64,000 nucleotides of DNA, from contig CAVRNT010000002.1 of NCBI GenBank assembly GCA_963722655.1, positions 7,461-71,460 of the forward strand, given 5' to 3'. The position numbers and the translations under genes are program-made. The notes beneath the pieces are model-generated. The model made no database searches. It was given only the letters and a program-made list of their open reading frames with translations, and was not told the origin of the DNA. Position 1 is the first letter of the stretch; each line of letters begins with the position of its first letter. Positions 31,210-45,443 of this stretch are shown piece by piece. The stretch is from an uncultured bacterium. GTDB taxonomy: Bacteria; Patescibacteriota; Minisyncoccia; UBA6257; GWB1-50-10.

Positions 31210-31238
31210 AAACCGCCGCTTGGCGGTTTTTTGTTTTT
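31210..31238 (+). terminator. Rho-independent terminator after rplS
   Basis: AAACCGCC-gctt-GGCGGTTT followed by a T-run of 10. Confidence 0.65.
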
Positions 31239-31257: not shown

Positions 31258-31344
31258 GCCCAGGTGGTGGAAATGGCAGACACACTACCTTGAGGTGGTA
31301 GCGCCAGCAATGGCTTGGAGGTTCGAATCCTCTCCTGGGCACCA
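31258..31344 (+). tRNA. tRNA-Leu (anticodon GAG), long variable arm, CCA encoded
   Basis: Acceptor GCCCAGG/CCTGGGC, anticodon stem CTACC/GGTAG loop TTGAGGT, long variable arm, 3' ACCA. Confidence 0.85.
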
Positions 31345-31444: not shown

Positions 31445-32965
31445 ATGAAAAGGAGTTTGATTCGCGTTTTTGCAATCGGAATATTGTTCCTGCTCCTTTT
31501 TTTGCCGGCCAAAAGGGAGCAGTCGCTTAATCGCGCCAAGGCGGCATCTTTGACGGCCCAGCCGACCGTCTGCCTCGGCGGTTGGCAAAACCCGGGCAGC
31601 GCGGCGGGAGAGCCGGACGGCAATTCGGCCGTTTTGAGCCAGACGGCGGCGCAGATCTTCTGCGGTTATTTCCAGTCGGGCGACCAATCCAACCCGCCGG
31701 CGCAGGTTACGCTCAATTTTTCTTGGAACATCATCTTTGGAAATCAGAGCGGCCAAACGGTCCAACCGGCCGCGACCGATACCGACACTCAAAATTGGAG
31801 CGCGGTCTTGAGTGGAACTAGCACGACGTCAATCGCGCCAACCTCGACTGAGCCGGCGACCACATCGACCCAAGAAGAGCCATCTTCAACGGATGCCGTG
31901 ATCGTGACGTCAACGGATGCCACGAGCACGGAGCAAACAGCCGCCGATACGTCGACTGACGCAACGGCTCCGACGTCGACATCGATGGACCAAACAACGC
32001 CGCCGCCAACGCCCACGTCCACCGACTCGAACTCCACGACGACCTCCTTTTTGGACAACGTGGGTAAATTCATCGCCGGACTTTTCCTGAACAAGGCCTC
32101 GGCTGATACCGGTCCGGCCGTGAACTTCCTCGAGGTGAGCTACTCTTTGGACGGCCAGACCTGGCAGGTTTTGGGCGACGTGAACCAGAACAACTGGCAG
32201 GGACTGACCTTCAACATTCCGGTCACTTCCTGGGACGACATCAATAAGCTCCAAATACAATTGAGCCCGCTCCCGACGATGGATATGCCCGAAATAGACC
32301 TCGACGGAATGTGGCTCCAGGTCGGCTACAACCAGTCGGTCGCGGACGCCCTCACCTCCGGCGCGAATGCCGCCTTGGATACGGCCGCCAATTTAAGCGA
32401 CGCGGTGAACAGCGCCTTGAGTAACGTCGCCGACGCAATTACGAACGCCCTGACCGGCAATAACCAAGATCAAAGCACCTCCACTCAACCCCAAATGCCG
32501 ACTCTGCCGCCTCCGCCCGCGCACCGATACTCCTTCGCTATCGGCGGAGTAACGCCTATCCCGAGCGGCCCATTACCCTGGGTCTCCGAAAAGGACGCGG
32601 ATTATCTCAAGGATAATTTGAGCGCGAACACGGCCGTGCCCGTCGTGACGCTGACCGACAGGAACACCATCCAAATCCAAGGCGGTTGCGCGGCCCCGTA
32701 TTACACCATCCTCATCTTCGCCAATCCTACCGACTATGCGAGCGATCCTTCCTCTGCCGTATTCAACAAATCGTATAACTGCACGGGCGGTAATTTCACG
32801 AAGACCCTTTCCGACGAAGATCTGCCGCCGGTGCTCCAGAACGGTACCTATTACCTTATCGTCGCCGACCAGGGGGACAAAGGCCCGTGGCAACCTAGAC
32901 CGGGGATTTTCCAAATCTCCTTCGCCGCCGTCGCGCCGGACGCTTCATCAACTGCCACTCAATGA
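31445..32965 (+). CDS. Large secreted Ser/Thr-rich protein with C-terminal 2-Cys domain (hypothetical surface protein)
   Basis: Signal/TM LIRVFAIGILFLLLFL; long T/S/P low-complexity tract; C-terminal domain GGCAAPYYTILIFANP...KSYNCTGGNFTKTL...NGTYYLIVADQGDKGPWQPRPG paralogous to the 40316-40816 product. Confidence 0.55.
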   Translation: MKRSLIRVFAIGILFLLLFLPAKREQSLNRAKAASLTAQPTVCLGGWQNPGSAAGEPDGNSAVLSQTAAQIFCGYFQSGDQSNPPAQVTLNFSWNIIFGNQSGQTVQPAATDTDTQNWSAVLSGTSTTSIAPTSTEPATTSTQEEPSSTDAVIVTSTDATSTEQTAADTSTDATAPTSTSMDQTTPPPTPTSTDSNSTTTSFLDNVGKFIAGLFLNKASADTGPAVNFLEVSYSLDGQTWQVLGDVNQNNWQGLTFNIPVTSWDDINKLQIQLSPLPTMDMPEIDLDGMWLQVGYNQSVADALTSGANAALDTAANLSDAVNSALSNVADAITNALTGNNQDQSTSTQPQMPTLPPPPAHRYSFAIGGVTPIPSGPLPWVSEKDADYLKDNLSANTAVPVVTLTDRNTIQIQGGCAAPYYTILIFANPTDYASDPSSAVFNKSYNCTGGNFTKTLSDEDLPPVLQNGTYYLIVADQGDKGPWQPRPGIFQISFAAVAPDASSTATQ

Positions 32966-33594
32966 TAAATTCCCAATCCCTCCATAAAAGTAACGTCGTC
33001 TTGGTCTTCAAAGACAGGGGCTTGCAGCCGCCGGAAAATTCGGAGATGACCGCCCTCTACGAGAGCGACAAGGGCCGGGGAGCACAACTCGTGGATGACC
33101 CTTTGATGCGGATGAAGATAATGGATGTGCCGCAGTTGAAGCTCCAGGTCGCCTGGGAGGCCGAGCGCCTGCGCCTCGAAGACATGGGTGCCCTGGAGCC
33201 GGACGAATCGCTTTTGATGGACGAGCTCGTCCGGGTCTACGAGAAGCTATGCGAGAAGCGGCCCATCGAGATCGCTTCCTTCGGATTCAACTTCGACGTT
33301 TTTTACCAGACCTCCGACGTGATCCGTATAGGCGACCTCTGGAACGAGGTGTCTAAAATGCCACTTACGCTCGGCGACAGCTTATTGGACTTCGGCTGGC
33401 AGTGGACGATCGCTGAAAAGAGCGGCCGGCGTTTGGACGCCTATTTCACAAAGGTCACGGCGCCACTAGAGTTCGTGATGCACCACAACGCCCACTTCAA
33501 TGTCCACCCACTCCCCGCGCTCAAGGAATTGAAAGATTTGTTCAAGAGGTCGTATGAAAGGACGCGCACCGCTGCTGAAAATCTCAAACTATGA
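32962..33594 (+). CDS. Hypothetical cytoplasmic protein (210 aa)
   Basis: No TM, no recognisable motif. Confidence 0.4.
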   Translation: MINSQSLHKSNVVLVFKDRGLQPPENSEMTALYESDKGRGAQLVDDPLMRMKIMDVPQLKLQVAWEAERLRLEDMGALEPDESLLMDELVRVYEKLCEKRPIEIASFGFNFDVFYQTSDVIRIGDLWNEVSKMPLTLGDSLLDFGWQWTIAEKSGRRLDAYFTKVTAPLEFVMHHNAHFNVHPLPALKELKDLFKRSYERTRTAAENLKL

Positions 33595-35174
33595 GTCTTT
33601 CCGCTGACAAGAAAAAGGGGGTGAAAATAAGGACCGTGAAGCGCCACGGGGCGTTTGCCGTCGCCGTCATAATCGCTGCAGAGGCTATTTTCTCCTTCTT
33701 CCTTTACCTCGCTATCGCCGGGAAGATTTTTGCGCCGCTTCCAGTGGAAGCCCAACCTGGCGTGCCCAACCTCATTTCATACCAGGGACGTCTCACGGAC
33801 ACCTCCGGCAATCCCTTAGGTGGGACAGGAACCGTTTATTGTTTCCGCTATTCCATCTTCGATGCCCAGAGTGGTGGCAATCAACTCTGGCCGGCGAACG
33901 GTAGCGCAACCACCACCCCCAGTAATTCAACGACAACCGTCACGGATGGCGTTTTCAGCGACCAGATCGGCCGGGTGGATAACCTCGCATCTTCATCGCT
34001 CCTTGATTTCATGTCCACCTCAACCTACTACCTGCAGGTTCAGGTGAGCACTTCGTCCCCAACATGCGCAAGCGGCCTAGAAACACTCGCGCCACGCCAA
34101 CAGATCGTCTCCGATGCTTGGGCTAGAACCGCGGCTAACGTTTACGGCTCCATCCGAACAAACGTCGCAAACAAGGTTCAGATCGGTTCCGGCGCCGGCG
34201 CCCAATCCGGCTACACCTTGCTGACCTTGGACCAGTCAAGCTCGAGCACGGAGGCGGTGGGTAACGCCTGCCCAAGCGGTGCGAGTAACGGCTCACTGTG
34301 GTACAACAACATATCTAGCCGCGCCCTCGTTTGCGAGAACAACCTCATCCAGGCCATTTCGAACGCCTCGACGACTATCGCTGGCATTACCGTGAACGCC
34401 ACGAGCGTCACGGCCGGGACGGTCGTGTTCCAAAACGGGAACAACGTCTCCTTTGGTATCAACGGGTCGACGATTACGGCAACCGCAGCTGCTGGCGGCG
34501 GGGGAGCTACCTTGAGCAATTTTTACTATCCACCCGGGGTCATGCAGAGTGCTATGTCCTTATTGTTGAACGCCTCCGGCGGGGTTCTTTCGTTAGTTCC
34601 TTTCCAATTAAATCAAGCACTGACCGCTAGCCGGGTAGCTATTATGGCTTCGATCACTGGCACGACCAGCGCTTCAGCTACTACTCAGTTACGTTCCAAC
34701 CAAATATCTCTTCAAATAGGCATCTATACAAGGGGTGGTGGGACATCCACGGCGAGCATCTATGCGGCCACGTCAATTGCAACAACTTGGTCGTGGAGCT
34801 GGAACGGTACAACAAACACGACAGTTCTCCAAAATATCACCGGCTGGCGGCGGTTGTCGGCGGCGGTGAACATTAACGCCACGCCGGGAGAATATTGGTA
34901 CGGCGTATGGATAAGTCAAGCCCAAACCAACACGGCCTCAGGAGTAGTTGTCTCCTTGGCGATAGGTGATTACAATTCGACTCTTATTTATGGAGGTAAC
35001 ATCAGTGCAATTACCAACTCTTCCCGGCAACCAATGTTGGGCATGGGCATTTACAGCAACAATACTACTAGTGGCTTGACCACATCTATGCCAATCACTT
35101 ATATTTTCGGTGGCGGGGCAACGGGCACACTTAATATGCCATGGATTTTGTTCACGGATTTTGATATGAACTAA
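33591..35174 (+). CDS. Large membrane-anchored/secreted beta-rich protein (hypothetical surface protein)
   Basis: N-terminal TM FAVAVIIAAEAIFSFFLYLAIAG; Gly/Ser/Thr/Asn-rich repetitive beta-strand sequence; GC content drops from about 34.5 kb inside the gene. Confidence 0.5.
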   Translation: MSLSADKKKGVKIRTVKRHGAFAVAVIIAAEAIFSFFLYLAIAGKIFAPLPVEAQPGVPNLISYQGRLTDTSGNPLGGTGTVYCFRYSIFDAQSGGNQLWPANGSATTTPSNSTTTVTDGVFSDQIGRVDNLASSSLLDFMSTSTYYLQVQVSTSSPTCASGLETLAPRQQIVSDAWARTAANVYGSIRTNVANKVQIGSGAGAQSGYTLLTLDQSSSSTEAVGNACPSGASNGSLWYNNISSRALVCENNLIQAISNASTTIAGITVNATSVTAGTVVFQNGNNVSFGINGSTITATAAAGGGGATLSNFYYPPGVMQSAMSLLLNASGGVLSLVPFQLNQALTASRVAIMASITGTTSASATTQLRSNQISLQIGIYTRGGGTSTASIYAATSIATTWSWSWNGTTNTTVLQNITGWRRLSAAVNINATPGEYWYGVWISQAQTNTASGVVVSLAIGDYNSTLIYGGNISAITNSSRQPMLGMGIYSNNTTSGLTTSMPITYIFGGGATGTLNMPWILFTDFDMN

Positions 35175-35180
35175 ATAAAA

Positions 35181-36173
35181 ATGAAAGATAACTTCAAATA
35201 CATCATTATCTCTGTTATCTTGGCGGCGGCAACATTCATCTTGGGGTTTTACGTGAGCAAGGTGAATAGTGGGGCACAGAATGCCTATGTCGCTCCCGTA
35301 AACGGCGATAGTACCGAAGCGACACAAAATAATCTTATTAACCCATCTGTGACGATGAACATCGGGAAACATTTCATCATCAACTTCAAGCCGCTCAAAG
35401 ACCAGCTAACGGCGATACAGAAAGAATATGCTCAAAAAACGTACATTTATTTCGATTATCTCAATAATGCTTCCTGGATCGGCTTGAACGAGAGGGACAA
35501 CTTTACGGCCGCGAGCACCGTGAAGGTTCCGCTTGCCATGGTGCTTATGAAAGCCGTTGAAGACGGAAAGTTGAAATTGACCGATTCATATGCCCTGGAT
35601 GATTTGGATTTGGACAAGAATTTCGGGGATTTATACAAGGTTGGTGCCGACCAAGCATTTACTATAGAGGAATTGCTTAAGATAATGCTGGAACAATCGG
35701 ATAACACGGCGATGCATGGCATCGTTAATGTTTTCAATAAAATCGGGATTGACGACCCGCTAGCGGGTGTATACGATGCCATGGGATGGGGGATAGGTAC
35801 CCCGAATTTATTGCCAGATGTGGGACAAACCGTGGATTACGGTCAGATAAATCTTAAAATGTTATCCAATATGTTCATCGCCCTTTATAACGCAGATTAT
35901 GTGAACGTGGAGCATTCCCAACAAATCCTGAATTACCTAGATAACACGCCATTCAACGACAAAATAGAAGCCGGCGTTCCAGCAAACATTTCGGTTGCTC
36001 ATAAGATAGGAACATCCGTAGACAACGAAACCTTCGCGGATTGTGGTATCATCTACGCCCCAAGCCGTAATTATCTTCTATGTCTCGCCTCCAACGGTGG
36101 GAACGATAATGTCGCTTCAGAATTTATGGCTGAAATTTCCAAGGCAGTTTATAGCTACGTTATGAAAAATTAA
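35181..36173 (+). CDS. Membrane-anchored serine hydrolase of class-A beta-lactamase fold
   Basis: SxxK (STVK), SDN (EQSDNTAM), KTG-like (HKIGTS) motifs; N-terminal TM; low GC. Confidence 0.65.
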   Translation: MKDNFKYIIISVILAAATFILGFYVSKVNSGAQNAYVAPVNGDSTEATQNNLINPSVTMNIGKHFIINFKPLKDQLTAIQKEYAQKTYIYFDYLNNASWIGLNERDNFTAASTVKVPLAMVLMKAVEDGKLKLTDSYALDDLDLDKNFGDLYKVGADQAFTIEELLKIMLEQSDNTAMHGIVNVFNKIGIDDPLAGVYDAMGWGIGTPNLLPDVGQTVDYGQINLKMLSNMFIALYNADYVNVEHSQQILNYLDNTPFNDKIEAGVPANISVAHKIGTSVDNETFADCGIIYAPSRNYLLCLASNGGNDNVASEFMAEISKAVYSYVMKN

Positions 36174-36175
36174 AC

Positions 36176-36979
36176 ATGGAAGAAACACGGAAGATTAAAA
36201 TCGACGAACTGCTAGCCACCGCAAAGGCCAAAGAATGGGAAACACGAGTGCTTCAGGGTAATACCTACAAGAATTTTTCGACCATCATTGTCATTGCGAC
36301 CCGTGGCAAAGGCGTCACGAACGTTAAATGCCCGAAATGCGACCACCCGTTCGAAGTGGAACATTGGGTCGGCCTCCACCCGTGGATAGTGGAGTCGTGG
36401 AAACGATTCATCAAGCCGATGAACATTCCGGTGCAAGAAATAATGATTTCAGGGCACGAGGTAGGTCAAGCTTATGAGGAAGCAGTTCAGGTTATCCTTG
36501 AAACACCGCAGTTCAAAAATTATCGCTACATACTTTTTCTCGAGGATGATATTATCGTGCCATTCATAAACAATTCTTTCGGGCCGCTCATCGAGCTTTT
36601 CAAACATATGGAGAAGTTTGATGTCGCCTCGGCCCTATACTGGACTAAAGGCGAACCGTCTTTACCTCTCGTCTATGGCGACGGTAACATCAACGCGTCC
36701 AGTCCATTCGAGGTCAATACCAATTGGCAGCCCGGTCAGACCGTCGAGGTGAACGGTTGCGGCATGGGCTTCGCACTCATGAAGAAGAATATATTTGAGG
36801 ATCCGCACCTCGAAAGGCCGTTTTTTAAAACCGTAAGTGAGGTTAAAGACGGCCAATACAAGGGTTATACGCAGGACCTGTATTTTTACGAGAAGATAAA
36901 GAGATTGGGTTATAAGATATGTGTTGACACCGGCGTCCGCTGCGGCCACCTGGATTTTCAGAGTGAGGTGGTCTATTGA
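36176..36979 (+). CDS. GT2-like (GT-A fold) glycosyltransferase with N-terminal CxxC element
   Basis: DXD (YILFLEDDII), GT2 C-terminal signature NGCGMGFALMKKNIFED; CPKCDHPF near N-terminus. Confidence 0.55.
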   Translation: MEETRKIKIDELLATAKAKEWETRVLQGNTYKNFSTIIVIATRGKGVTNVKCPKCDHPFEVEHWVGLHPWIVESWKRFIKPMNIPVQEIMISGHEVGQAYEEAVQVILETPQFKNYRYILFLEDDIIVPFINNSFGPLIELFKHMEKFDVASALYWTKGEPSLPLVYGDGNINASSPFEVNTNWQPGQTVEVNGCGMGFALMKKNIFEDPHLERPFFKTVSEVKDGQYKGYTQDLYFYEKIKRLGYKICVDTGVRCGHLDFQSEVVY

Positions 36980-37872
36980 TCATGGAGAGAAACCAGTTCG
37001 ACGAATTATTGGAGAACGTTAAGCGCGTATATGGACCGTTTTATTCATACACTCTTAACTTTGAGAAGACTATTACCCCTAGGGAAGATCTAGGCGTATT
37101 TTTTAACCGCCTATTATACATCACGAACGATATGTTTCGGGATATTCCTATCAAAAAGATCAGAGTTCTAGATCTCGGCTCTTATGAAGGCATATATTCG
37201 GTGGGCTTTGCTCAACTAGGCGCAGAGGTGGTCTCGGTTGAAGGGAGGAGAATCAATTTCGCCAAGATGAAGGTGGCTAAAGAATATCTGGGCTTGCGGA
37301 AGCTCGATGTGGTTCAAGCTGATGTCCGAACCATCACGAGAGAAACATACGGTCGCTTTGACATCGTGCTTGCCTGCGGAATTATGTATCACCTGGATGC
37401 CCCTTCGGTTTTCGAAGTGTCCAAAAACATATCTGATATGGCCGAGCGCTTGGCTATTATCGACACACACATTTCTCTGTCCCGCCCGGTCAGCCATATC
37501 TACAAAGAAAGAGCTTATTGGGGTATGATTCATAAAGAATTCGACGCTGGTATCTCAACTCACGAAAAAGAATTATATCTCGCTAACGCACTAGATAATA
37601 ACGAGAGTTTTTGGCTGACGAAAATTTCCTGGTTAAATCTCCTGAAGAGTCTAGAGTTCAACACGGTTTATGAGTGTTTGGTACCCCAAGCGGAACGGGA
37701 AAAAAGATTATACGACAGAGCAACGCTTGTTGCAGTTAAAAATCTAAAATCTAAATCGTTCTTCCCGGTTTCTATTTCTCCGGACCCGCTATCAGAACAG
37801 ATCGGAGAGACGATATTCATTATGCAGGATAATCAACCCATTCCCAACGATAACGGAATAATTGTAAGATAA
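36976..37872 (+). CDS. Class I SAM-dependent methyltransferase
   Basis: Motif I VLDLGSYEG, acidic loop VVSVEGR, motif FDIVLACGIMYHL. Confidence 0.65.
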   Translation: MIMERNQFDELLENVKRVYGPFYSYTLNFEKTITPREDLGVFFNRLLYITNDMFRDIPIKKIRVLDLGSYEGIYSVGFAQLGAEVVSVEGRRINFAKMKVAKEYLGLRKLDVVQADVRTITRETYGRFDIVLACGIMYHLDAPSVFEVSKNISDMAERLAIIDTHISLSRPVSHIYKERAYWGMIHKEFDAGISTHEKELYLANALDNNESFWLTKISWLNLLKSLEFNTVYECLVPQAEREKRLYDRATLVAVKNLKSKSFFPVSISPDPLSEQIGETIFIMQDNQPIPNDNGIIVR

Positions 37873-37877
37873 AATCC

Positions 37878-38639
37878 GTGGTAGATGTTGTAATCCCAAC
37901 CAAAAAAACTTCACCTTTCTTCGATGCGAGCATCGATTCGTTAAAATACATCCCGTTCCCTTATAAATTACACCTCATTACTAAAGGTACTAGCTGGGCT
38001 GAGGCGATAAATATCGGCTTTGGGGAGAGCGAAAATGATGTGCTCATAATGGACGACGACACGATTCTGGAACCCGACACATTCAGGAATTTTAAACCAA
38101 TTGGGGACATAACCGGATTCAAATTAAGAGGCGGGGATGGGAAAATTAACCATGCCGGGAGCTATGTCGAAATTAGCGATTTCTCATATTGCAATGCTCC
38201 AGTCTCTCCATATTTTCCCGAAACACCGGATATCGTTATTAACTGCCATGCCGGATTTGGGCATCTCTCGGAAGATATAACCGAACCTATCGAGGTTCCT
38301 CATTGCACCGCCTCGCTGCTCTATATCAAGAAAAATGTCTGGCAAAAATTGCACGGTATAGCAACCGACTATCCGGGTTACCAGTACGAGGACGTGGATT
38401 TTTCTTTCCGGGCTCTGAAAGAAGGGTTCAAGATAGTTTGCCTGCCCAATGAAGCGATCCACCATTTGGGAGCAACTAAGGGCTCCGACCCGAATTTCCC
38501 TCAGAAAATGTCGGTCAATCTAAAAATTATCACTCGAAAATTTTTTAGTGACCCGGAATTTATAGGACTCCTTTACAAGAGAGGGCTTGTCAATGGGCAT
38601 TCATCAATCTTTACAAATTCAGATTTTCTGATAAAATAA
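37878..38639 (+). CDS. GT2-like glycosyltransferase
   Basis: N-terminal VVIPTKK, DXD in VLIMDDDTIL, GT-A spacing. Confidence 0.55.
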   Translation: MVDVVIPTKKTSPFFDASIDSLKYIPFPYKLHLITKGTSWAEAINIGFGESENDVLIMDDDTILEPDTFRNFKPIGDITGFKLRGGDGKINHAGSYVEISDFSYCNAPVSPYFPETPDIVINCHAGFGHLSEDITEPIEVPHCTASLLYIKKNVWQKLHGIATDYPGYQYEDVDFSFRALKEGFKIVCLPNEAIHHLGATKGSDPNFPQKMSVNLKIITRKFFSDPEFIGLLYKRGLVNGHSSIFTNSDFLIK

Positions 38640-38704
38640 TTACTTAATTAAGTTCTTTTAAAATTCACTTTCCCCGATAAACTCAGAAATGGAGGACAGC
38701 CGTC

Positions 38705-39706
38705 ATGGCAGAAGAGTTCTACAACAGGTTTAATTCCTTAAAGATCCTGATTTTTTCTGACAGGTTGCAGGAGATCGCTGTCGGCGGATTGCCGTACCCG
38801 TTGATCTGGCACATTTACCCGACCAATCACTGCCCCTTAGATTGCGATTTTTGTATCATGGCCGAGGAAAGGGAAAACAAGGTTTCCCTCCCCAGAGAGA
38901 TTCTTTTGAAGGCTATCCGGGATGCCGCCGAACACGCGAAAACCATACATTTTTCCGGAGGCGGGGAACCGACAGCTCACCCCGATCTTTTGGAAGCGAT
39001 CGAACTAGCTAAGAGATCCGGCTTGAAGGTGGCACTTTCGACCAACGGTGTTTCCCTGACCCAGAAAATATTTGATCTGGTAGATTTTCCGCGGGTCAGC
39101 TTGAACGCTGCTACAAAAGAGGTCTTCCGAAGCAATACCGGCACCGATCTTTGGGACAAAATCATCGAGAACATCAAAGATCTCAAGGGCAACAAGGGTA
39201 AATTAGGACTAGGATTCGTATTGACCCCGGAAAACCAAAGAGACCTTTACGGTTTTTGCAAGTTGGCGAACGACCTCGGCATTAGTTGGGTCCACATCCG
39301 GCCGGCTTTTCTAAAGAAAAGGAACGAAGAGGTCAGAGCCCTGATGCCCGAATCGACCAGGATCATCGATGGTGCTAAGGAGGATTTCCCCGACTTGGTG
39401 ATTCACTTCAAAACGGACAAATTCGACGGCTATTGGACGCCAAGGAGGTACGATAAGTGCCGGGCAACACCATTATTAGCGGTGCTGAAGGCGAACGGCA
39501 AATTCTGCGTTTGCCAAGACAGGGTCGACCTGGAATACGGCGATTATCGGAAACAATCCTTCGAGGAAATTTGGCGCTCAAAAGAACATCTGGAAATACT
39601 GAAGAGAATCAATCTCGAAGAATGTCCCAGATGTGTCGAGACGAAGAAGAACGAGTACATCCAAAAAATCTTCATAGAGGATGGATTTGTAAGAGATATT
39701 CTCTAG
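38705..39706 (+). CDS. Radical SAM enzyme with C-terminal Cys-rich (SPASM/twitch-like) region
   Basis: CPLDCDFC (Cx3Cx2C) at residues about 43-50, GGEP motif (FSGGGEPTAHPDL), C-terminal CVCQDR...ECPRC cysteines. Confidence 0.75.
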   Translation: MAEEFYNRFNSLKILIFSDRLQEIAVGGLPYPLIWHIYPTNHCPLDCDFCIMAEERENKVSLPREILLKAIRDAAEHAKTIHFSGGGEPTAHPDLLEAIELAKRSGLKVALSTNGVSLTQKIFDLVDFPRVSLNAATKEVFRSNTGTDLWDKIIENIKDLKGNKGKLGLGFVLTPENQRDLYGFCKLANDLGISWVHIRPAFLKKRNEEVRALMPESTRIIDGAKEDFPDLVIHFKTDKFDGYWTPRRYDKCRATPLLAVLKANGKFCVCQDRVDLEYGDYRKQSFEEIWRSKEHLEILKRINLEECPRCVETKKNEYIQKIFIEDGFVRDIL

Positions 39707-39721
39707 CATACGTAAGAATTA

Positions 39722-39756
39722 GCCTGTTCAGTTATGAAACTGAACAGGCGTTTTTT
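39722..39756 (+). terminator. Rho-independent terminator after the radical SAM gene
   Basis: GCCTGTTCAGTT-atga-AACTGAACAGGC 12-bp stem followed by TTTTTT. Confidence 0.65.
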
Positions 39757-39776
39757 AAAATAGGCCTCGCGCGCTG

Positions 39777-39785
39777 TGTTATAAT
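39777..39785 (+). promoter_or_regulatory. Candidate extended -10 promoter (TGtTATAAT) for downstream methyltransferase
   Basis: TGTTATAAT at 39777-39785; SD AAGAGGGA 8 nt before ATG 39810. Confidence 0.35.
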
Positions 39786-39809
39786 GCCATACGTAAGAGG
39801 GATGAAACC

Positions 39810-40319
39810 ATGAAACTGGATATCGGCTGTGGCCCAAATAGACAGAAAGGATTTAAGGGAACGGACGTCATTTCAGGACCTACCGTGGATTTTGTTTTGG
39901 ACCTGGAGAAATTTCCTTGGGAACCGTTCGCGGACAACTCCTGCGACGAAATCTACACGTCTCATTATGTGGAAAAAACGAAAGACCTCATTAAGTTTAT
40001 GGACGAAATGTGGCGCATCTGCACTCCGAACGCTAAAATTACGATAGTCGCCCCTTACTACACCTCGATCCGCGCCTTTCAGGATCCCATGGCGACCCGT
40101 TTGCTTTCCGAAGCCACGTGGCCATATTTCAATAAGGAATGGCGCACCGCAAACAAGCTCGATCACTACCCGATCAAGTCGGATTTTGCCATTGAAAAAA
40201 TAATGGTCTTTTTTAACCAGCCATGGGACAAGAAATCCGAGGAGGCAAGGGAGTTCGCTAAAACCCATTACTGGAACGTCGTCTCCGATATTCTCGTCGA
40301 GCTCAAAGCCGTAAAATGA
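39810..40319 (+). CDS. SAM-dependent methyltransferase (type 11-like, small)
   Basis: Motif I LDIGCGPN, acidic DVIS, SCDEIYTSHYVE motif. Confidence 0.65.
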   Translation: MKLDIGCGPNRQKGFKGTDVISGPTVDFVLDLEKFPWEPFADNSCDEIYTSHYVEKTKDLIKFMDEMWRICTPNAKITIVAPYYTSIRAFQDPMATRLLSEATWPYFNKEWRTANKLDHYPIKSDFAIEKIMVFFNQPWDKKSEEAREFAKTHYWNVVSDILVELKAVK

Positions 40320-40816
40320 AGATCAAGACCAAGGCAAAGATCGGCCGCGAATATCGCGTCTTGGCCATCGCGGTCGTTTTCTTTGCCGTCGGCCTTTTTT
40401 TCTTTATCAAGGACCAAACGATACCGGCGCCGCAGACTAAGCCGACGGCCGCGCCAACATTGAGCGTCGCTTCGCCCCAGGGGGCAAGTTTCCCCGATCC
40501 GACATTCGCCAAATATCCTGCGCCATCCAATTTCGAAAAATTCACCTATGAGAATGGAGAGATCGACGGCGCGAGCAGCTTGAGCGTCTCTGCGACCTGC
40601 AATGGCCAATACGTCGCCATCCTGATATATCCCGGGAACTTCGATTACCGGTTGGATGTGAGCCGGTCCGTTTACAACAAATCGTTCCCTTGCGACACCG
40701 GAAAAACCTTCAATCACATCATCGAAGCAGCGGACCTTTCAACCCTCCAGCCGGGAAGTTATTACCTGATGACGGCTGACCAGGGAGCGAGCGGCCCGTG
40801 GTATAATCCTAAGTAG
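40316..40816 (+). CDS. Secreted small protein carrying the same C-terminal 2-Cys domain as the 31445-32965 product
   Basis: TM VLAIAVVFFAVGLFFFI; SATCNGQYVAILIYPGNFDY...NKSFPCDTGKTFNHI...GSYYLMTADQGASGPWYNPK aligns with the C-terminus of the 506-aa protein. Confidence 0.5.
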   Translation: MKIKTKAKIGREYRVLAIAVVFFAVGLFFFIKDQTIPAPQTKPTAAPTLSVASPQGASFPDPTFAKYPAPSNFEKFTYENGEIDGASSLSVSATCNGQYVAILIYPGNFDYRLDVSRSVYNKSFPCDTGKTFNHIIEAADLSTLQPGSYYLMTADQGASGPWYNPK

Positions 40817-41254: not shown

Positions 41255-42589
41255 ATGCTCAAGGGAGGGTCCGCTATCTCGCTGGCCGCTTTAATCCTCG
41301 CGCTCGCCGCCTTGCCGTCGGCGCGGGCTTTTAATTCTACATCGACCGATTTCTTCCTGCGCGGTGACGTCCAAAGCATCGGCGGGCGGACGACCTCCAC
41401 CGATTTCATTATCTTTAACAACGGTGCGGTGGATGCCCTGAATCTCGCGACCTCGACGGATTTCCAGCTCATCCCGGGCCTCATCCGCGCCCTTTTCCAG
41501 TCGCCCGCGCCGACCTACACGCTCATACATTATCATTTCCGTTTTGACAACGGCACGGAGCAGACGGCGAGTTCCGCGACGAATGGGATTGAAGATGTTG
41601 CCCTCACGAACTGGGCACAGAGCACGAGCACGCGACTCCGGGTGGAGATCTCGAACACCGGCGGGACCATCATCAACTACACCTCACAACAGTTCCGCAT
41701 CGAATACGGGCTCTTGAGTTCCTCCTGCGCGTCCTCGTCCTATTCCGCTGTAACGAGCACGGGCGCCTGGACGATGTTCAATTCGGGCAATTTGAACGAC
41801 GCCTCGGACACCACGAACATCGCGGTATCGACGGGCGGCGTTTTGGACACCAACCATACCTTCCTCACGCCGAACGGGGGAGTGCGAGATTCTTCGAACC
41901 AGACGGGCGCGCTTTCATTACCATTACCGAGCGATTCTTTCGCGGAACTGGAATACGACATCCAGGCGGTCGCGAGCTCTACCCCCGGCGCCACTTACTG
42001 TTTCCGGGTCACGAACGCCGGTAGCGCGACAAGCTTCGCTTATTCCCAATATCCCCAGATAACCTTGGTGGGCGGCGCCCAGTCCATCTCGCTCGTCATC
42101 TCCACAACGACCGTGAACTTGCCGGGCCTCGCTCCGGGGACGCCCATCACGGGAACCTCGACCGCGACGGTCACATTGACTGGCGGCACTCATGGCTACA
42201 GTTTGCAGATTCAAAGGAACTCGTCCACCTCCACGCTCTCGTCCTCCACCACTCCGTTCCCGGATTACGCCTCCTGGAATCCATCAAGCACCAACTGCAC
42301 ATCGGGAGAGGGGAACGCCACGACGACCCCCGGGAAGACATTTGCCCTCCGCGTTCAGCAGACGGGCACGACGGCGAACTACTGCTCTTTCTGGTGGGGA
42401 GCGAGCGACGCAAGCGGCACCGCCCTTTACGCCGGGGTGCCGACGAGCACCGTGACGATCGTTAACGCCACCTCAACGAACAACGGCACCTCCACCTCGA
42501 CCATTCTTTACCGGGCCGACGTGCCTTCAACCCAAAAAGCCACGAATTATACCGGATTAGTGACCATCACCGTCCTGGCCAACCCGTGA
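41255..42589 (+). CDS. Secreted Ser/Thr-rich protein with repeated TSTDF motifs and C-terminal domain paralogous to the next gene
   Basis: Signal peptide; three N-terminal (S/T)STDF(F/I/Q) repeats; C-terminal NSSTSTLSSSTTPFPDYASWN...FALRVQQTGTTANY...WWG...GVPT...TNYTG. Confidence 0.5.
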   Translation: MLKGGSAISLAALILALAALPSARAFNSTSTDFFLRGDVQSIGGRTTSTDFIIFNNGAVDALNLATSTDFQLIPGLIRALFQSPAPTYTLIHYHFRFDNGTEQTASSATNGIEDVALTNWAQSTSTRLRVEISNTGGTIINYTSQQFRIEYGLLSSSCASSSYSAVTSTGAWTMFNSGNLNDASDTTNIAVSTGGVLDTNHTFLTPNGGVRDSSNQTGALSLPLPSDSFAELEYDIQAVASSTPGATYCFRVTNAGSATSFAYSQYPQITLVGGAQSISLVISTTTVNLPGLAPGTPITGTSTATVTLTGGTHGYSLQIQRNSSTSTLSSSTTPFPDYASWNPSSTNCTSGEGNATTTPGKTFALRVQQTGTTANYCSFWWGASDASGTALYAGVPTSTVTIVNATSTNNGTSTSTILYRADVPSTQKATNYTGLVTITVLANP

Positions 42590-42626
42590 TATCCACAGCT
42601 ATAGTCAAAACCGGTATGTTATAATA

Positions 42627-43292
42627 GTGTCAATGAGGAAGGCAATAAAAACGCTCTCTTTCGAAGGTTATGTCGTGGCAATATCGGTCGCGGTCTTCAC
42701 GGCGGTGGCTCTTTTTGCCGCTATTCCATCGCTCGTACCCCAGGTTTTCGCGAGCACGTCCACGTCAACGGGCCAGACGATAAATTTGACGGTGAATCAG
42801 ACGATCACGCTCACCGTCCCGGCCGCGGTCAGCATGACGGCCCTCACGCCGGGCAACAACACGCCGAGTATCTCGACGACGACCGCGGTCGTTTCGACGA
42901 ACGCATCGAACGGCTGGAACTTGCAAATCAATCGCAATTCCTCTACCTCGACTCTTGCCTCGTCGACCATAAATTTCCCGGACTACACTTCCTGGAACGG
43001 GAGCAGTAATGCGGCTACATCTTCCGTCGTCGCACAGACCTTCGCCTTCCGCGTCTACCAGACCGGGACGACCGGAGGTATCTACAACACCACCTGGTGG
43101 GGGACGAACGACACGGACCCGAACGCTAAATTCGGCGGCGTGCCGACGGGTGCAACTACAATGGCGAGTACGAGCACCTACAGCGGTTCATCTCAAACCG
43201 TCGTCTTCGGTTTCCGGGCCGACGCACCGGCCACCCAAGCCGCCACGAACTACACCGGCAACATCACCGTGACCGCGATCGCCCTTCCGTAA
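42627..43292 (+). CDS. Secreted paralogue of the C-terminal domain of the preceding gene
   Basis: NSSTSTLASSTINFPDYTSWN...FAFRVYQTGTTGGIYNTTWWG...GVPT...ATNYTG collinear with 41255-42589 C-terminus. Confidence 0.5.
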   Translation: MSMRKAIKTLSFEGYVVAISVAVFTAVALFAAIPSLVPQVFASTSTSTGQTINLTVNQTITLTVPAAVSMTALTPGNNTPSISTTTAVVSTNASNGWNLQINRNSSTSTLASSTINFPDYTSWNGSSNAATSSVVAQTFAFRVYQTGTTGGIYNTTWWGTNDTDPNAKFGGVPTGATTMASTSTYSGSSQTVVFGFRADAPATQAATNYTGNITVTAIALP

Positions 43293-43332
43293 AGCGCTTG
43301 CCGGCCAAGGGCTGAGCTGTATAATAAGGGGG

Positions 43333-44238
43333 ATGGTCAATAAACGATTCAGATTTTTCTTCGCTATTACCGCCATTACGGTAATATTTTTATCTCCGGT
43401 CTTAGCCAACGCCCAGGTCGGGATCTCGCTCTTCCCAATCAAGTTCGATGTTACGGTCGCGCCGGGGCAGACCTACTCCGACACCGTTACCGTCATCAAC
43501 CCCAACGATTTCCCGATCGGCGTCCAGCCAGAGGTGGAGAACATCGCGGGCGGCAATCAGGGCTCCATCGACCTCGTTGACACAGACATCCCGCACGGCC
43601 TTTCGGCTTGGATCCAGATCGACCGAACCCAGTTCACCTTGGCCCCGCAGGAAAGACGACAGGTGTCGTTCTCTATCGTGGTCCCGGAAAACGGCGAGCC
43701 CGGAGGCCACTACGGCGCTATTCTCTTTAGAGGCGTAACGGTCGCGGGGAATCCCGCCGCGACCGGCGTCGGTATTTCCGGCCGAGTCGGTTCGGTGATC
43801 CTCGTGAACGTCCCAGGCGCCTCTTACGCCACCGGCAATTTGGCCGACTTCGCCGGTCCTAGTTCCTACGTCTCCCACGGCCCGGTGAACTTCTCCTTTA
43901 CCGTCAACAACACCGGCAACACCCATTTCAGCCCCCAAGGCCAAATCACATTGAACGGCCCCTTATTGGGGACCATCCAAATACCCTTTGATTCTGGCAT
44001 CATTTTCCCTGGTTACAACCGCGTTTTCACAGCCTCCTGGCCAAACCGGTACGGTTTCGGCCCGCTCACGGCTACCCTTTCGGTCCAGATCCCGGGGAGC
44101 GGGACAGTGACAAAAACGCTTCATTTCTTCATGTTCCCGTGGCAGGAAGCCTTCGGCATACTGGTAATTCTGCTCGTCCTGATCTTCTCCTTCCGGGGCG
44201 TCAAGAAGAACTTCCGGATAGTCCGCGTTCAGAGGTAA
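43333..44238 (+). CDS. Cell-surface protein, DUF916-like ectodomain with C-terminal TM anchor (DUF3324-like)
   Basis: Signal peptide, beta-rich domain, C-terminal WQEAFGILVILLVLIFSF + RGVKKNFR; architecture as in Firmicute WxL-locus DUF916 proteins. Confidence 0.45.
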   Translation: MVNKRFRFFFAITAITVIFLSPVLANAQVGISLFPIKFDVTVAPGQTYSDTVTVINPNDFPIGVQPEVENIAGGNQGSIDLVDTDIPHGLSAWIQIDRTQFTLAPQERRQVSFSIVVPENGEPGGHYGAILFRGVTVAGNPAATGVGISGRVGSVILVNVPGASYATGNLADFAGPSSYVSHGPVNFSFTVNNTGNTHFSPQGQITLNGPLLGTIQIPFDSGIIFPGYNRVFTASWPNRYGFGPLTATLSVQIPGSGTVTKTLHFFMFPWQEAFGILVILLVLIFSFRGVKKNFRIVRVQR

Positions 44239-44239
44239 C

Positions 44240-45439: not shown

Positions 45440-45443
45440 ATCA

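Follow-up and report, generated by a model that had tools for sequence, protein, structure and literature searches.

A low-GC gene block in a Minisyncoccia surface-protein operon as a candidate variable glycotype cassette

What does a block of six co-directional genes of conspicuously low GC content do in the middle of an array of secreted proteins, and how did it come to be there? We address this question for a 64,000-nt stretch of DNA from an uncultured bacterium of the Minisyncoccia (henceforth the window), the features of which are listed in Table 1. A protein of at least 90% identity bears a Minisyncoccia label, in support of a CPR origin. The reading that we favour, with a probability of roughly 0.6, is that the block (35181–40319) is a variable glycotype cassette of a surface-protein operon conserved in Minisyncoccia (CPR), and that it glycosylates the adjacent proteins before their export.

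Table 1. Features of the low-GC block and its flanks (positions in the window).
Feature	Position	Strand	Basis or remark
Thr/Ser-rich secreted protein, 506 aa, first gene of co-directional array	31445..32965	+	S+T 0.22, N-terminal hydrophobic segment
cyt210, conserved cytoplasmic protein, 210 aa	32962..33594	+	flank-phylogeny marker; 4-nt overlaps with both neighbours
surf527, mosaic boundary gene, membrane-anchored Ser/Thr/Asn-rich surface protein, 527 aa	33591..35174	+	S+T 0.24
Beta-lactamase-fold serine enzyme, N-terminally anchored	35181..36173	+	Pfam Beta-lactamase2
GT-A-fold glycosyltransferase, A197-like (protein 2)	36176..36979	+	structure prediction, PDB sequence match
MT298, class I SAM methyltransferase, 298 aa	36976..37872	+	weak Pfam Methyltransf_25/11/23
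GT2-type glycosyltransferase, small, cytoplasmic, 253 aa	37878..38639	+	Pfam Glyco_trans_2_3 below gathering score
Radical SAM enzyme (rSAM) with twitch-like SPASM	38705..39706	+	Pfam Radical_SAM + SPASM
Intrinsic-terminator-like hairpin	39722..39749	+	12-bp stem, 4-nt loop, T-run; closes GT2-rSAM module
Extended -10 promoter-like element TGtTATAAT	39777..39785	+	consensus match only; upstream of small methyltransferase gene
Small class I SAM methyltransferase, 169 aa	39810..40319	+	Pfam Methyltransf_11
Small secreted protein, 166 aa, right edge of low-GC block	40316..40816	+	composition and affinity flank-like again
Continued surface-protein array, further candidate targets	41255..45439	+	four proteins, see text

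The initial annotation described the six genes as tightly packed with overlaps of 1–4 nt. They are indeed co-directional, but the gaps between them measure +2, -4, +5, +65 and +103 nt, so not all six are packed in this way and a single junction among them overlaps; the last gene, encoding the small methyltransferase, then overlaps the following surface-protein gene by 4 nt. The two signals described at the same time, i.e., a terminator after the radical SAM gene and an extended -10 promoter before the last methyltransferase, are both present.

The first protein of the block had been read as a serine hydrolase with SxxK and SDN motifs, and the motifs (STVK and SDN) were found, together with a strong match to Beta-lactamase2 (1.4e-34) and a TM-like segment at residues 3–21. 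Its score against the NCBIfam model bla_class_A was 74 bits (cut-off 200). When aligned to TEM-1, the protein keeps STxK, SDN and K-x-G and has a gap or Gly at E166/N170, so the deacylation residues Glu166 and Asn170 are missing. The second protein had been called a GT2 enzyme with a DXD motif and a CxxC element; the glycosyltransferase fold and the CxxC insert stand, whereas a recognisable GT2 domain does not. The protein matched no Pfam or NCBIfam model, that of Pfam GT2 included, and we rejected the GT2 assignment in favour of a GT-A fold closest to that of STIV A197. This protein was its PDB sequence match (5e-4) and also the first Foldseek hit of its AF2 model (pLDDT 88; 1e-10), ahead of LH3, COLGALT1, POMGnT1 and ppGalNAc-Ts. 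The enzyme belongs to a family of about 200 proteins, mainly from Patescibacteria and without a Pfam model, in which E123, D125, TQDL and H258 are invariant; its CxxC...H...H insert was seen only in the closest subfamily. Judging from the predicted structure, we propose that it may be an initiating glycosyltransferase that acts on a protein acceptor.

Both methyltransferases expected from the initial annotation were recovered. MT298 matches Pfam weakly, and the solved structures closest to it are those of EvdMO1 (a sugar O-methyltransferase; 6e-10) and WbdD (8e-3), with the match confined to the SAM-binding core (residues 60–184); by sequence, it is probably a glycan O-methyltransferase. It has orthologs in L020 (69% identity) and L019 (52%), and is missing from L001 and L021. 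The small methyltransferase scores above the Methyltransf_11 cut-off (25.5 vs. 21.2 bits), matches phrog_5399 (SAM-dependent methyltransferase), and has orthologs in L001, L019, L020 and L021 (58–66%) as well as in L022 (31%).

Both flanks encode Thr/Ser-rich extracytoplasmic proteins, as had been claimed, with S+T fractions of 0.22–0.31 and N-terminal hydrophobic segments. The 506-aa protein, which has orthologs in L001, L019, L020 and L021, is paralogous over its C-terminal ~85 aa to the 166-aa protein encoded at 40316–40816 (37–38% identity). Next to it, cyt210 had no match in Pfam, NCBIfam, PHROG, PADLOC or PDB, and no TM-like segment was seen in it. The boundary protein surf527 carries a TM-like segment at residues 19–37 and 18 NxS/T sequons, and is a candidate glycosylation target. 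Downstream, the array comprises two paralogous Thr/Ser-rich proteins, one WxLIP_PGBD protein (2e-8) and one fn3-Ig-dockerin protein (fn3 3e-9, Dockerin_1), with S+T fractions of 0.22–0.31 except in the WxLIP_PGBD protein (0.14), and is syntenic in L001, L020 and L021.

None of the five glycosyltransferase, methyltransferase and radical SAM enzymes has a TM segment, and we envisage that they would build a short, decorated glycan in the cytoplasm on the adjacent Ser/Thr-rich proteins. The A197-like enzyme would put the first sugar on the protein, the GT2 would attach a further sugar, the methyltransferases would O-methylate the glycan, and rSAM would abstract an H atom from the sugar added by the GT2, or from its nucleotide-sugar donor, and so tailor it (the sugar could be oxidised to a keto sugar, deoxygenated, decarboxylated or epimerised; cf. 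DesII, BtrN and BlsE). The anchored beta-lactamase-fold enzyme would act extracellularly, either on the wall or on the glycoprotein once exported. It is uncommon for Sec substrates to be glycosylated in the cytoplasm; precedents are SRRP/GtfAB, HMW1C and the autotransporter heptosyltransferases.

The same enzymes could instead decorate a non-protein envelope polymer (peptidoglycan, a teichoic-acid-like polymer, a glycolipid or capsule), in which case the cassette would merely sit in a surface-protein operon and the beta-lactamase-fold enzyme would be a wall-active peptidase partner. The near-constant presence of this extracytoplasmic beta-lactamase/PBP-fold enzyme would fit such a role, as would the downstream WxLIP_PGBD protein, which binds peptidoglycan, and the gene cluster of the Pacearchaeota homolog, one for lipid-linked N-glycan assembly. 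GT2 enzymes, too, often make polyprenol-linked sugars or polysaccharides. However, the region between 31 and 48 kb contains no priming phosphoglycosyltransferase, flippase, polymerase, ligase or GT-C, all glycosyltransferases of the cassette are soluble, and the nearest structures to the GT-A enzyme are mostly those of protein-acceptor glycosyltransferases. Moreover, the type of cassette changes together with the C-terminal half of one specific surface protein (see below), and the phage head modules in which homologs occur offer no envelope polymer to decorate. We therefore regard this alternative as unlikely, while noting that it survives better than the others.

Turning to the origin of the block, composition along the window is not uniform, and both the fall in GC within the 3′ third of surf527 and the recovery near 40316 that had been noted earlier are borne out by windowed GC and GC3. 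Per gene, GC is 0.43–0.48 and GC3 0.47–0.60 in the block, vs. 0.54–0.60 and 0.68–0.77 in the flanking genes; in 500-nt windows, GC drops from 0.55–0.63 to 0.39–0.50 between ~34500 and ~40300 and is back at flank level at ~40300–40400. The block lies at a tetranucleotide distance of 0.031–0.034 from the window mean, compared with 0.013–0.026 elsewhere, two other low-GC patches excepted. Within surf527, GC3 is 0.78–0.80 at 34191–34490 and 0.46–0.66 past 34491, and the gene at 40316–40816 has a GC3 of 0.68.

We compared the cassette with those of five syntenic Patescibacteria relatives; in each of the five, one occupies the corresponding slot of a conserved surface-protein operon. The full set of six is not kept together: each relative has three to five of the genes, arranged as modules, with the GT-A enzyme and the small methyltransferase constant, the beta-lactamase-fold protein near-constant, and MT298 (found in type-A cassettes only, i.e., in the window, L019 and L020) and the GT2-rSAM pair optional. 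In L019, an NDP-sugar epimerase/dehydratase and a nucleotidyltransferase lie next to the cassette. The GT-A enzyme is the most conserved member, being 88%, 85% and 76% identical to that of the window in L020, L019 and L001, respectively, vs. 52–69% among the remaining genes of the cassette.

The type of cassette varies together with the C-terminal half of surf527, and against the flank phylogeny. The closest flank relative of the window is L001, as seen in cyt210 (72% identity, vs. 57% in L020, 41% in L021 and 33% in L019), residues 1–200 of surf527 (81%, vs. 65% in L020) and the 40316–40816 protein (53%, vs. 43% in L020), yet its cassette is of a different type. Over residues 281–527 of surf527, identity to the window is only 38% in L001, vs. 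64% in L020 and 50% in L019. The 5′ part of the gene thus tracks the flank phylogeny and the 3′ part (from ~34200–34500) the cassette type, and the switch of affinity at ~34.2–34.5 kb coincides with the fall in GC, which is why we read it as a serotype-like allelic replacement.

Low GC could also have arisen without any transfer, through vertical inheritance combined with local mutational or selective bias or with the amino-acid usage of enzymes. All relatives hold a cassette in the same slot, that of L001 shows a GC dip too (milder than that of the window), and the GC2 of the cassette enzymes (0.31–0.36) is intrinsically below that of Thr/Ala/Gly-rich surface proteins. Nevertheless, GC3 falls as well, and cyt210, with an equally low GC2 (0.34), has a GC3 of 0.75; the break is intragenic where affinity switches, and in both the GT-A enzyme and the surf527 C-terminus the window groups with L019 and L020, in conflict with the flank tree, which makes a purely vertical history improbable.

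The horizontal acquisition proposed in the initial annotation stands only in part: it does so as regards the composition break and phylogenetic discordance, and not as regards foreign DNA. A classic mobile island was rejected: the locus showed neither an integrase nor a tRNA junction nor flanking repeats, and the slot is occupied in all five relatives, so foreign DNA was not inserted here. Replacement of a resident cassette by another allele, one from a relative of lower GC, fits both the composition break and the discordance. Such a homologous replacement, like that at O-antigen or flagellin-glycosylation loci, would have had breakpoints at ~34.2–34.5 kb and ~40.3 kb. The window comes from a high-GC genome, in which the cassette resembles lower-GC relatives in composition. 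The low-GC relatives L019 and L020 show no compositional anomaly at their cassettes, and it is from composition that we infer the direction of the exchange. In the 3′ half of surf527, L001 is the outlier to all genomes (30–39%), so it may also, or instead, have swapped. Furthermore, the GT2-rSAM pair is common only to the window and L001, at 68–76% identity (a flank-like divergence), yet is low-GC in the window, which a single replacement event does not cleanly explain.

This pair also bears on the chemistry. Its GT2 had been annotated as a second GT2 enzyme and is of GT2 type, but the Glyco_trans_2_3 match is weak (6.5e-5); its homologs carry PF13632/PF13641 and adjoin rSAM in L001, L006, L009, L011 and L015. 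The radical SAM/SPASM assignment holds for the CPLDCDFC motif and both domains (Radical_SAM 8.5e-20; SPASM 28.9 bits, cut-off 21.5), whereas the supposed C-terminal Cys cluster shrinks to four family-conserved residues (CX12GX4C...CxxC), and the SPASM domain is therefore truncated. A housekeeping role was checked and rejected on profile scores (NrdG2 35 bits vs. a cut-off of 131; MoaA 41–43 vs. 284–325), and QueE is absent among the listed NCBIfam matches. The family comprises 1,376 representative clusters and is uncharacterised. The GT2-type protein cluster to which this enzyme belongs is represented near rSAM homologs in 21 of 26 distant loci; one homolog adjoins GT2 genes in an archaeal (Pacearchaeota) AglB/STT3 cluster, and another lies in a glycosyltransferase cluster beside flagellin/FlaG. 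Others occur in phage portal-MuF-protease-capsid modules, and a reciprocal search recovered the pair in an SU10-like phage directly after SU10_MCP. The phage modules of glycosyltransferase and rSAM genes might in principle act on DNA rather than on virion proteins. Fusions join rSAM homologs to an FkbM methyltransferase and a DegT sugar aminotransferase (a CBM6 match is sub-threshold). These contexts support a role in protein glycosylation and, together with gene content, bear out the initial view of a glycan-building and -tailoring enzyme set among Ser/Thr-rich secreted proteins; we propose that rSAM is a sugar-tailoring enzyme, with a chemistry that may resemble that of DesII, BtrN or BlsE.

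Could rSAM instead be a peptide or protein maturase (installing a thioether, epimer, crosslink or formylglycine-type residue) on the Cys-containing secreted paralogues, with the glycosyltransferases and methyltransferases acting on the modified residue or independently? Its top structural neighbours are DesII and BlsE, but the RiPP maturases SkfB and SuiB lie within 0.2–1.7 Z units of DesII, so structural neighbours do not discriminate. Other evidence makes this RiPP-type role, raised initially, very improbable. The stretch ahead of the rSAM core is only ~35 residues long, too short for an RRE domain, no small precursor ORF lies in the 65- and 103-nt spacers, and every curated peptide-maturase model scores far below its cut-off. 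Recurrent neighbours in the 26 loci are glycosyltransferases, methyltransferases and phage head genes, with no peptidase, transporter or precursor peptide among the annotated clusters; in the two true fusions the partner is a methyltransferase or a sugar aminotransferase, and three relatives retain the secreted paralogues without any rSAM. Least likely of all, and scarcely credible, is anti-phage defence or nucleic-acid modification (a viperin-like rSAM, or DNA glycosylation/methylation): the PADLOC matches (pVip, 46 bits, to rSAM; mad2 to MT298) span only the generic N-terminal rSAM core and methyltransferase fold, viperin_w_prok scores 40 bits vs. a cut-off of 180, the locus has no nuclease, kinase, hydroxymethylase or DNA-binding gene, and the genes lie in a secreted-protein operon or, in phages, in head-morphogenesis modules, even though phages employ glycosyltransferases and rSAM enzymes in DNA hypermodification (reportedly described in 2024).

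Among known enzymes, A197 (PDB 2c0n) is the best sequence and structure match to the GT-A protein (TM 0.72 on the target) and is likewise a compact, soluble GT-A enzyme with an acidic ExD/DxD motif; the window protein is 17% identical and ~75 aa longer, with an N-terminal helical extension besides its insert, and we know of no established acceptor for A197 either. The beta-lactamase-fold enzyme shares the fold and the SxxK/SDN/KxG motifs of class A beta-lactamases and penicillin-binding serine enzymes but lacks Glu166 and Asn170 of the omega loop, is membrane-anchored and lies inside the proposed glycosylation cassette. The orthosomycin sugar O-methyltransferase EvdMO1 and the O-antigen terminal methyltransferase WbdD are class I SAM enzymes that act on glycans, whereas the substrate-binding region of MT298 has no characterised relative. 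DesII, BlsE and BtrN, the substrates of which are sugar nucleotides, nucleoside sugars or aminocyclitols, combine a radical SAM domain with auxiliary domains of the twitch/SPASM type; they work in antibiotic biosynthesis rather than at protein or virion glycosylation loci. rSAM is only 16–19% identical to them, with sequence matches over just part of the radical SAM domain, and RiPP maturases match it almost equally.

At the level of whole systems, SRRP glycosylation by GtfA/B and tailoring glycosyltransferases, HMW1C, the autotransporter heptosyltransferases and phage virion glycosylation (reportedly described in 2023) resemble the cassette in that soluble glycosyltransferases adjoin Ser/Thr-rich structural or surface proteins, and modification precedes export or assembly, the phage versions lying in head-gene modules. 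To our knowledge, these systems use GT4, GT8, GT41 or GT2 enzymes and have no radical SAM partner; no accessory Sec genes were seen at the window locus, and modification of the target is here predicted. With O-antigen clusters and flagellin glycosylation islands the cassette has in common a GC below that of the genome, a fixed slot, modular gain and loss of glycosyltransferase and tailoring genes, and a probable exchange via homologous recombination in the flanks without an integrase. It differs from them in lacking Wzx/Wzy/ABC export, a priming glycosyltransferase and a nucleotide-sugar pathway, in its CPR host, and in that the exchanged unit takes in half of the presumed target gene.

The cassette belongs to a co-directional gene array that is preceded by a tRNA-Leu gene and a terminator-like hairpin and extends to about 48 kb, running from a secreted 506-aa protein through a 210-aa cytoplasmic protein (cyt210) and an anchored 527-aa protein (surf527) to six enzymes and then to a series of secreted proteins, among them a WxLIP_PGBD protein and an fn3-Ig-dockerin protein. 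Pfam and NCBIfam searches returned the six open reading frames and their domains as the initial annotation had given them, apart from three details that we corrected. The radical SAM gene does have its own terminator, the extended -10 element claimed for the last methyltransferase gene is present, and the flanking secreted proteins are indeed Thr/Ser-rich (Ser+Thr 22-31%, with a hydrophobic segment at the N terminus). The genes are, however, less tightly packed than the proposed overlaps of 1-4 nt, being spaced by +2, -4, +5, +65 and +103 nt, with -4 nt to the following gene.

Features of the window referred to in the text, with coordinates in nucleotides and, where available, the matches behind each assignment
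Feature	Coordinates	Remarks
tRNA-Ile(gat) and tRNA-Ala(tgc)	29277-29447	22 nt apart
Terminator-like hairpin	31210-31229	precedes array
tRNA-Leu	31258-31344	precedes array
Paralogous C termini (506-aa and 166-aa proteins)	32650-32965, 40560-40816	~85 residues, 37-38% identity
cyt210	32962-33594	
surf527	33591-35174	
Beta-lactamase fold protein (Bla)	35181-36173	Pfam Beta-lactamase2 1.4e-34
Protein 2 (GT-A)	36176-36979	no family match
CPKC...H...H insert of protein 2	36326-36370	residues ~51-65
Class I methyltransferase MT298	36976-37872	weak Pfam matches
Protein 4 (GT2-type)	37878-38639	weak, under gathering score
Radical SAM protein (rSAM)	38705-39706	Radical_SAM 8.5e-20; SPASM (PF13186) 28.9 bits vs 21.5
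Hairpin terminator	39722-39749	12-bp stem and T-run
Extended -10 element	39777-39785	TGtTATAAT
Small methyltransferase MT169	39810-40319	Methyltransf_11 25.5 bits vs 21.2
Surface-protein set	41255-48079	
Second low-GC patch	52000-56000	GC 0.47-0.50
tRNA-Val(cac)	52526-52598	
245-aa ORF	52662-53399	no Pfam match
TruB	54679-55329	
Lowest-GC stretch	60208-64000	GC 0.42-0.46
tRNA-Glu(ctc)	60208-60282	
Large serine recombinase	60242-61759	minus strand, 505 aa, Resolvase and Recombinase domains

Several further observations concern the array itself. All five relatives retain cyt210 (33-72% identity), and its gene overlaps the secreted-protein genes on either side by 4 nt; the protein matched nothing in Pfam, NCBIfam, PHROGs, PADLOC or PDB and might serve the surface proteins as a dedicated chaperone or adaptor. 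The C termini of the 506-aa and 166-aa proteins are paralogous, each with Cys, and this paralogy recurs in L001, L019, L020 and L021 (loci of relatives described below). The surface set downstream includes two paralogous Thr/Ser-rich proteins that share a terminal ...NYTG..T(V/I)T...P motif, together with WxLIP_PGBD (DUF916-type), fn3-Ig-dockerin and Big_13/Big_6 proteins; in L020 a cohesin-like gene is adjacent. The set recalls both the WxL/Csc complexes at the surface of Firmicutes and cohesin-dockerin pairing, but occurs in a CPR genome. The secreted proteins at 33591-35174, 31445-32965, 41255-43292 and 44240-45439 carry 18, 11, 11, 10 and 9 N-x-S/T sequons, and the cytoplasmic enzymes 0-4, numbers that may simply reflect richness in Asn, Ser and Thr; N-linked modification of the secreted proteins is possible on this sequence evidence.

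Four distinct relatives were syntenic with the window on both flanks (locus L005, found in a genome scan, represents the same lineage as L001), and L022 is a more distant locus. Each syntenic relative had a cassette in the same slot, although its contents differed. The window carries Bla, GT-A, MT298, GT2, rSAM and MT169 in that order; L001/L005 (GCA_009712145.1) has GT-A, Bla, MT170, GT2 and rSAM; L019 and L020 have Bla, GT-A, MT295 and MT169, without GT2 or rSAM; L021 has only Bla, GT-A and MT170; and in L022 GT-A is accompanied by two proteins, one with Methyltransf_24 and one resembling MT169. The cassette therefore consists of a constant core (GT-A and a small methyltransferase), a near-constant Bla and two optional modules, the ~295-aa methyltransferase and the GT2-rSAM pair; in this comparison the six genes did not move together as a unit. 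In the window the GT2-rSAM module lies between MT298 and MT169, own terminator included, and MT169 has acquired a promoter-like element. The junction DNA was too diverged from L019/L020 for an informative alignment around a possible insertion scar. Directly 5' of its surface-protein array, L019 encodes a VirD4/TraG-like coupling ATPase (3465-5327).

Cassette content was matched by part of a neighbouring protein. Across five genomes the C-terminal half of surf527 falls into types that correspond to the cassette: type A (window, L019 and L020, which share the ~295-aa methyltransferase and one gene order), type B (L001) and type C (L021). Such co-variation with a protein argues against decoration of a wall or lipid polymer, a reading that the Bla-fold enzyme favours and for which no priming glycosyltransferase, flippase or GT-C was found at the locus; we consider it unlikely, though still worth keeping in mind. 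The surf527 ortholog in L020 (Minisyncoccia GCA_049997835.1) is split by a frameshift at 2950-2953 (the two tblastn HSPs lie in different frames and the predicted gene has only 405 aa), which could mean that the gene is a pseudogene or phase-variable, or that the assembly is in error there.

The block had also been described as of low GC, with a break inside the 33591-35174 gene, and as horizontally acquired. Windowed GC, per-gene GC/GC3 and tetranucleotide distance all confirmed the deviation. Between about 34500 and 40300 the GC of 500-nt windows is 0.39-0.50, down from 0.55-0.63; GC and GC3 of the six genes are 0.43-0.48 and 0.47-0.60, against 0.54-0.60 and 0.68-0.77 in flanking genes; and tetranucleotide distance to the window average is 0.031-0.034 at 34-40 kb versus 0.013-0.026 in ordinary stretches. 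The fall does begin within the surf527 gene, where GC3 drops from 0.78-0.80 (34191-34490) to 0.46-0.66, and composition recovers at 40300-40400. In the relatives of lower GC (L019, L020 and L021; 0.44-0.52 overall) cassette composition was not distinct from the flanks, while L001, high-GC like the window, showed a milder dip.

Flank genes identified L001 as the nearest relative of the window: identity of cyt210 was 72% in L001, 57% in L020, 41% in L021 and 33% in L019, and the two flank proteins WxL444 and DUF916 were 71% and 74% identical in L001 versus 58% and 63% in L020. Against this flank tree, GT-A was most similar in L020 (88%) and L019 (85%) and less so in L001 (76%), and Bla was 63% identical in L020 versus 56% in L001. 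Within surf527 the affinity switches: residues 1-200 were 81%, 65% and 46% identical in L001, L020 and L019, respectively, and residues 281-527 were 38%, 64% and 50% identical. The switch falls at about residues 200-270 (nt 34200-34400), just 5' of the GC3 fall. Judged on five relatives and these identity tables, the locus has the hallmarks of a serotype-like exchanged glycan locus, i.e., a fixed slot, alternative contents, a composition break and discordance with the flanks. From composition, flank/cassette discordance and the surf527 switch and types, our conclusion is that homologous recombination among Minisyncoccia lineages has probably swapped the cassette and, with it, the 3' half of the surf527 gene, and that the window copy appears to derive from a lower-GC lineage.

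Vertical inheritance with a local compositional bias is an improbable source of the low GC, being contradicted by GC3, the intragenic break and the tree discordance. Horizontal acquisition stands as probable cassette exchange, supported by the composition break and discordant identities, and not as a classic mobile island: no recombinase, integrase or transposase was found between 31 and 48 kb, flanking direct or inverted repeats that could mark att sites were limited to chance-level matches of 14-24 nt, and the slot is filled in all five relatives. Two observations complicate the history. In the C-terminal half of surf527 L001 is an outlier to all others (30-39%), so it may also have swapped. 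Moreover, the GT2-rSAM pair is common to the window and L001 only, with flank-like divergence (68-76%), yet it is low-GC in the window; a single exchange event does not account for this.

Elsewhere, in contrast to the cassette, the window does contain a classic element: a large serine recombinase gene abuts or overlaps tRNA-Glu(ctc), and here begins the stretch with the lowest GC and the most deviant tetranucleotide usage, in all probability a mobile element that has integrated, or a prophage, continuing past the window end. A second low-GC patch, holding a 245-aa ORF and TruB, begins directly after tRNA-Val(cac). The tRNA-Ile/tRNA-Ala pair resembles an rRNA-operon spacer; an Rfam search found no rRNA in the entire window.

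Protein 2 had been called a GT2, but no Pfam GT2-family model matches it; it has no Pfam or NCBIfam match, nor do the records of the 120 homologs listed show one. About 200 proteins make up its family, most of them with a Patescibacteria or Parcubacteria label, and its cluster at 90% identity or more includes MGC9610977.1 ("Minisyncoccia bacterium"), which bears out the CPR origin supposed at the outset. The family invariably keeps E123-x-D125, the TQDL motif and H258. For the AF2 model (pLDDT 88) the best Foldseek match was the STIV viral GT-A glycosyltransferase A197 (1e-10), followed by the glycosyltransferase domains of LH3, COLGALT1, Mnn9, mimivirus R699, POMGnT1 and polypeptide GalNAc-transferases; the top matches are all GT-A enzymes, and most of those named after A197 have protein acceptors. 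Given the modelled fold, the acidic motif and the C-terminal metal-binding His, protein 2 is a predicted GT-A fold glycosyltransferase. Its zinc-knuckle-like insert (CPKC...H...H) is found only in the subfamily of at least 46% identity and is missing from the ~240-aa family majority; the model places it in extra beta-strands. Neither a phage Anp1-like glycosyltransferase (cluster c28) nor the window GT2 proved to be a specific A197-like relative (hhalign E ~0.09, generic C-terminal GT-A motif only).

Among solved structures, MT298 is nearest to the sugar O-methyltransferase EvdMO1 (6e-10) and to WbdD; PDB sequence searches with MT169, cyt210 and the C-terminal half of surf527 gave no significant match. 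The Bla-fold protein, the only membrane-anchored member of the cassette, keeps STVK, SDN and K-I-G but lacks Glu166 and Asn170, and scores 74 bits against NF033103 (cut-off 200); we therefore rejected it as a class A beta-lactamase. Protein 4 reached 23.3 bits with PF13632 (gathering score 27), many of its homologs carry precomputed PF13632/PF13641 annotations, and it groups with annotated GT2 genes.

The rSAM protein is a member of the radical SAM superfamily: C43-x3-C47-x2-C50 is invariant among 41 homologs, and PF04055 scores 72 bits against a gathering score of 29.5. The proposed SPASM domain with a C-terminal Cys cluster holds in part, in that PF13186 passes its threshold but family-wide conservation of auxiliary Cys is limited to four positions (C252, C270, C307 and C310). 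The seven-Cys motif of a full SPASM enzyme with two auxiliary clusters (CX9-15GX4C...CX2CX5CX3C...C) is missing; the CX12GX4C...CxxC pattern provides Cys for one auxiliary cluster and points to a truncated, twitch-like SPASM domain (AF2 model pLDDT 94). R130, H197, R199, K239 and R309 are invariant as well. No curated NCBIfam model came near its cut-off. Housekeeping enzymes were ruled out by scores far below cut-off for MoaA (41-43 bits vs 284-325) and NrdG2 (35 vs 131), with QueE absent among the matches listed, and maturase models scored similarly low (PqqE 46 vs 381, PapB 35 vs 340, StsB 42 vs 625). The alternative of a RiPP-type enzyme (sactipeptide, ranthipeptide, PqqE, SuiB) was not supported. 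A peptide or protein maturase is structurally possible, but the radical SAM core begins at residue ~37 with no N-terminal RRE, no small precursor ORF was found in the cassette spacers, no peptide precursor, peptidase or transporter is among the annotated recurrent neighbour clusters of the family, and three relatives retain the secreted paralogues without rSAM, all of which makes this role very improbable. Defence or DNA modification deserves next to no weight, since PADLOC matched only generic domains (pVip on the rSAM core, residues 35-126, and mad2 on the methyltransferase core; five other proteins gave no match).

The rSAM family comprises 1,376 representatives (50% identity, E<=1e-30), and no functional name is attached to any member examined. 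A profile search of genome contigs yielded 10 loci, too few for statistics, so viral contigs (the family occurs on seventeen) and per-protein contexts were added. In a Pacearchaeota locus, rSAM stands after a flippase and a GT2 and before a homolog of the window GT2, which is followed by Alg14/Alg13, GT2, GT4 and STT3/AglB. In a Deltaproteobacterium the order is GT, rSAM, three further GT genes, then flagellin and FlaG. Two phage or prophage loci embed rSAM in head modules, namely terminase, portal, MuF, GT1, methyltransferases, rSAM, sugar-type methyltransferase, GT2 and prohead protease in one, and Portal_Mu, Mu_F, GT1, class I methyltransferase, rSAM and XkdF protease in the other; a large phage carries a double GT2, rSAM and another GT, with a portal gene ~2.5 kb downstream. 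A GT2-type cluster that includes the window GT2 was present in 21 of 26 distant loci, usually immediately 5' or 3' of rSAM (counts resting on a crude gene call). A search in the reverse direction, with the GT2 partner as the starting point (41 homologs), turned up an SU10-like phage in which portal, scaffold, SU10_MCP, a 109-aa gene, GT2, rSAM and adaptor follow one another, with the GT2-rSAM pair at 7001-8886 of locus L040. The rSAM of this phage belongs to the family over its full length (36% identity, 3e-70).

Most of the long matches to the rSAM profile proved to be intein insertions, and others were fusions to carbohydrate enzymes (FkbM methyltransferase and DegT/DnrJ/EryC1 sugar aminotransferase, plus a sub-threshold CBM6 match). 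Inteins (Hint, Intein_splicing, LAGLIDADG) interrupt family members P0293, P0294, P0375 and P0380, and inteins are also found in MuF of L017 and in the L018 portal gene, a pattern typical of phage-borne genes. Similarity to the sugar-modifying enzymes DesII, BtrN, BlsE and AprD4 is structural only (16-19% identity); given the carbohydrate context and the fusions, it is plausible that rSAM works like them. Literature searches on radical SAM enzymes in flagellin, N-glycan, capsid or virion glycosylation, and on Patescibacteria glycosylation, yielded nothing characterising the rSAM family or the GT2-rSAM pair.

For a modular cassette that keeps its position, co-varies with part of surf527 and contains a GT2-rSAM pair recurrent in glycosylation-type contexts, we propose the following pathway. 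The soluble GT-A would put a sugar on Ser/Thr-rich regions of neighbouring proteins in the cytoplasm, the C-terminal half of surf527 being the first candidate target. The methyltransferases would O-methylate the glycan, GT2 would attach another sugar, and rSAM would use radical chemistry resembling that of DesII, BtrN or BlsE to tailor the sugar so added, or its nucleotide donor. The modified proteins would then be exported, and the anchored Bla-fold enzyme may act extracellularly on some step. Directly 3' of its cassette, L019 encodes an NDP-sugar epimerase/dehydratase and a sugar nucleotidyltransferase (12734-14407), which fits a pathway fed by sugar nucleotides. More broadly, with a probability of roughly 0.4, the GT2-rSAM pair may represent a widespread radical-SAM-dependent step in protein glycosylation (in CPR, in DPANN archaea within an AglB cluster, in flagellin loci and in many phage head modules) that installs an undescribed glycoprotein sugar modification (keto, deoxy, epimerised or decarboxylated; a linkage made by radical chemistry is also conceivable). 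The Minisyncoccia pair would then be an exchangeable module within a surface "glycotype" system that diversifies the episymbiont cell surface.

Episymbiont surfaces mediate attachment to the host. The locus offers a testable system, with a conserved surface-protein operon, hot-swappable enzymes and a type that co-varies with part of the candidate target. The chemistry of one rSAM-family member would annotate many genes, and could reveal new sugar tailoring on glycoproteins and virions, which is relevant to phage-host recognition, to immune evasion and to the search for new enzymes. A 2024 Saccharibacteria study called protein glycosylation in CPR/Patescibacteria unexplored. We rate the cassette itself as an ordinary kind of locus, and the recurrent GT2-rSAM module and target-linked swapping as worthwhile, testable leads. 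The locus behaves like serotype-type glycan loci (e.g., O-antigen loci or the flagellin glycosylation island), but does so within a CPR surface-protein operon. In its logic it is similar to cytoplasmic adhesin and virion glycosylation systems, from which it differs by its unannotated GT-A family, its Bla-fold member and, above all, its radical SAM partner.
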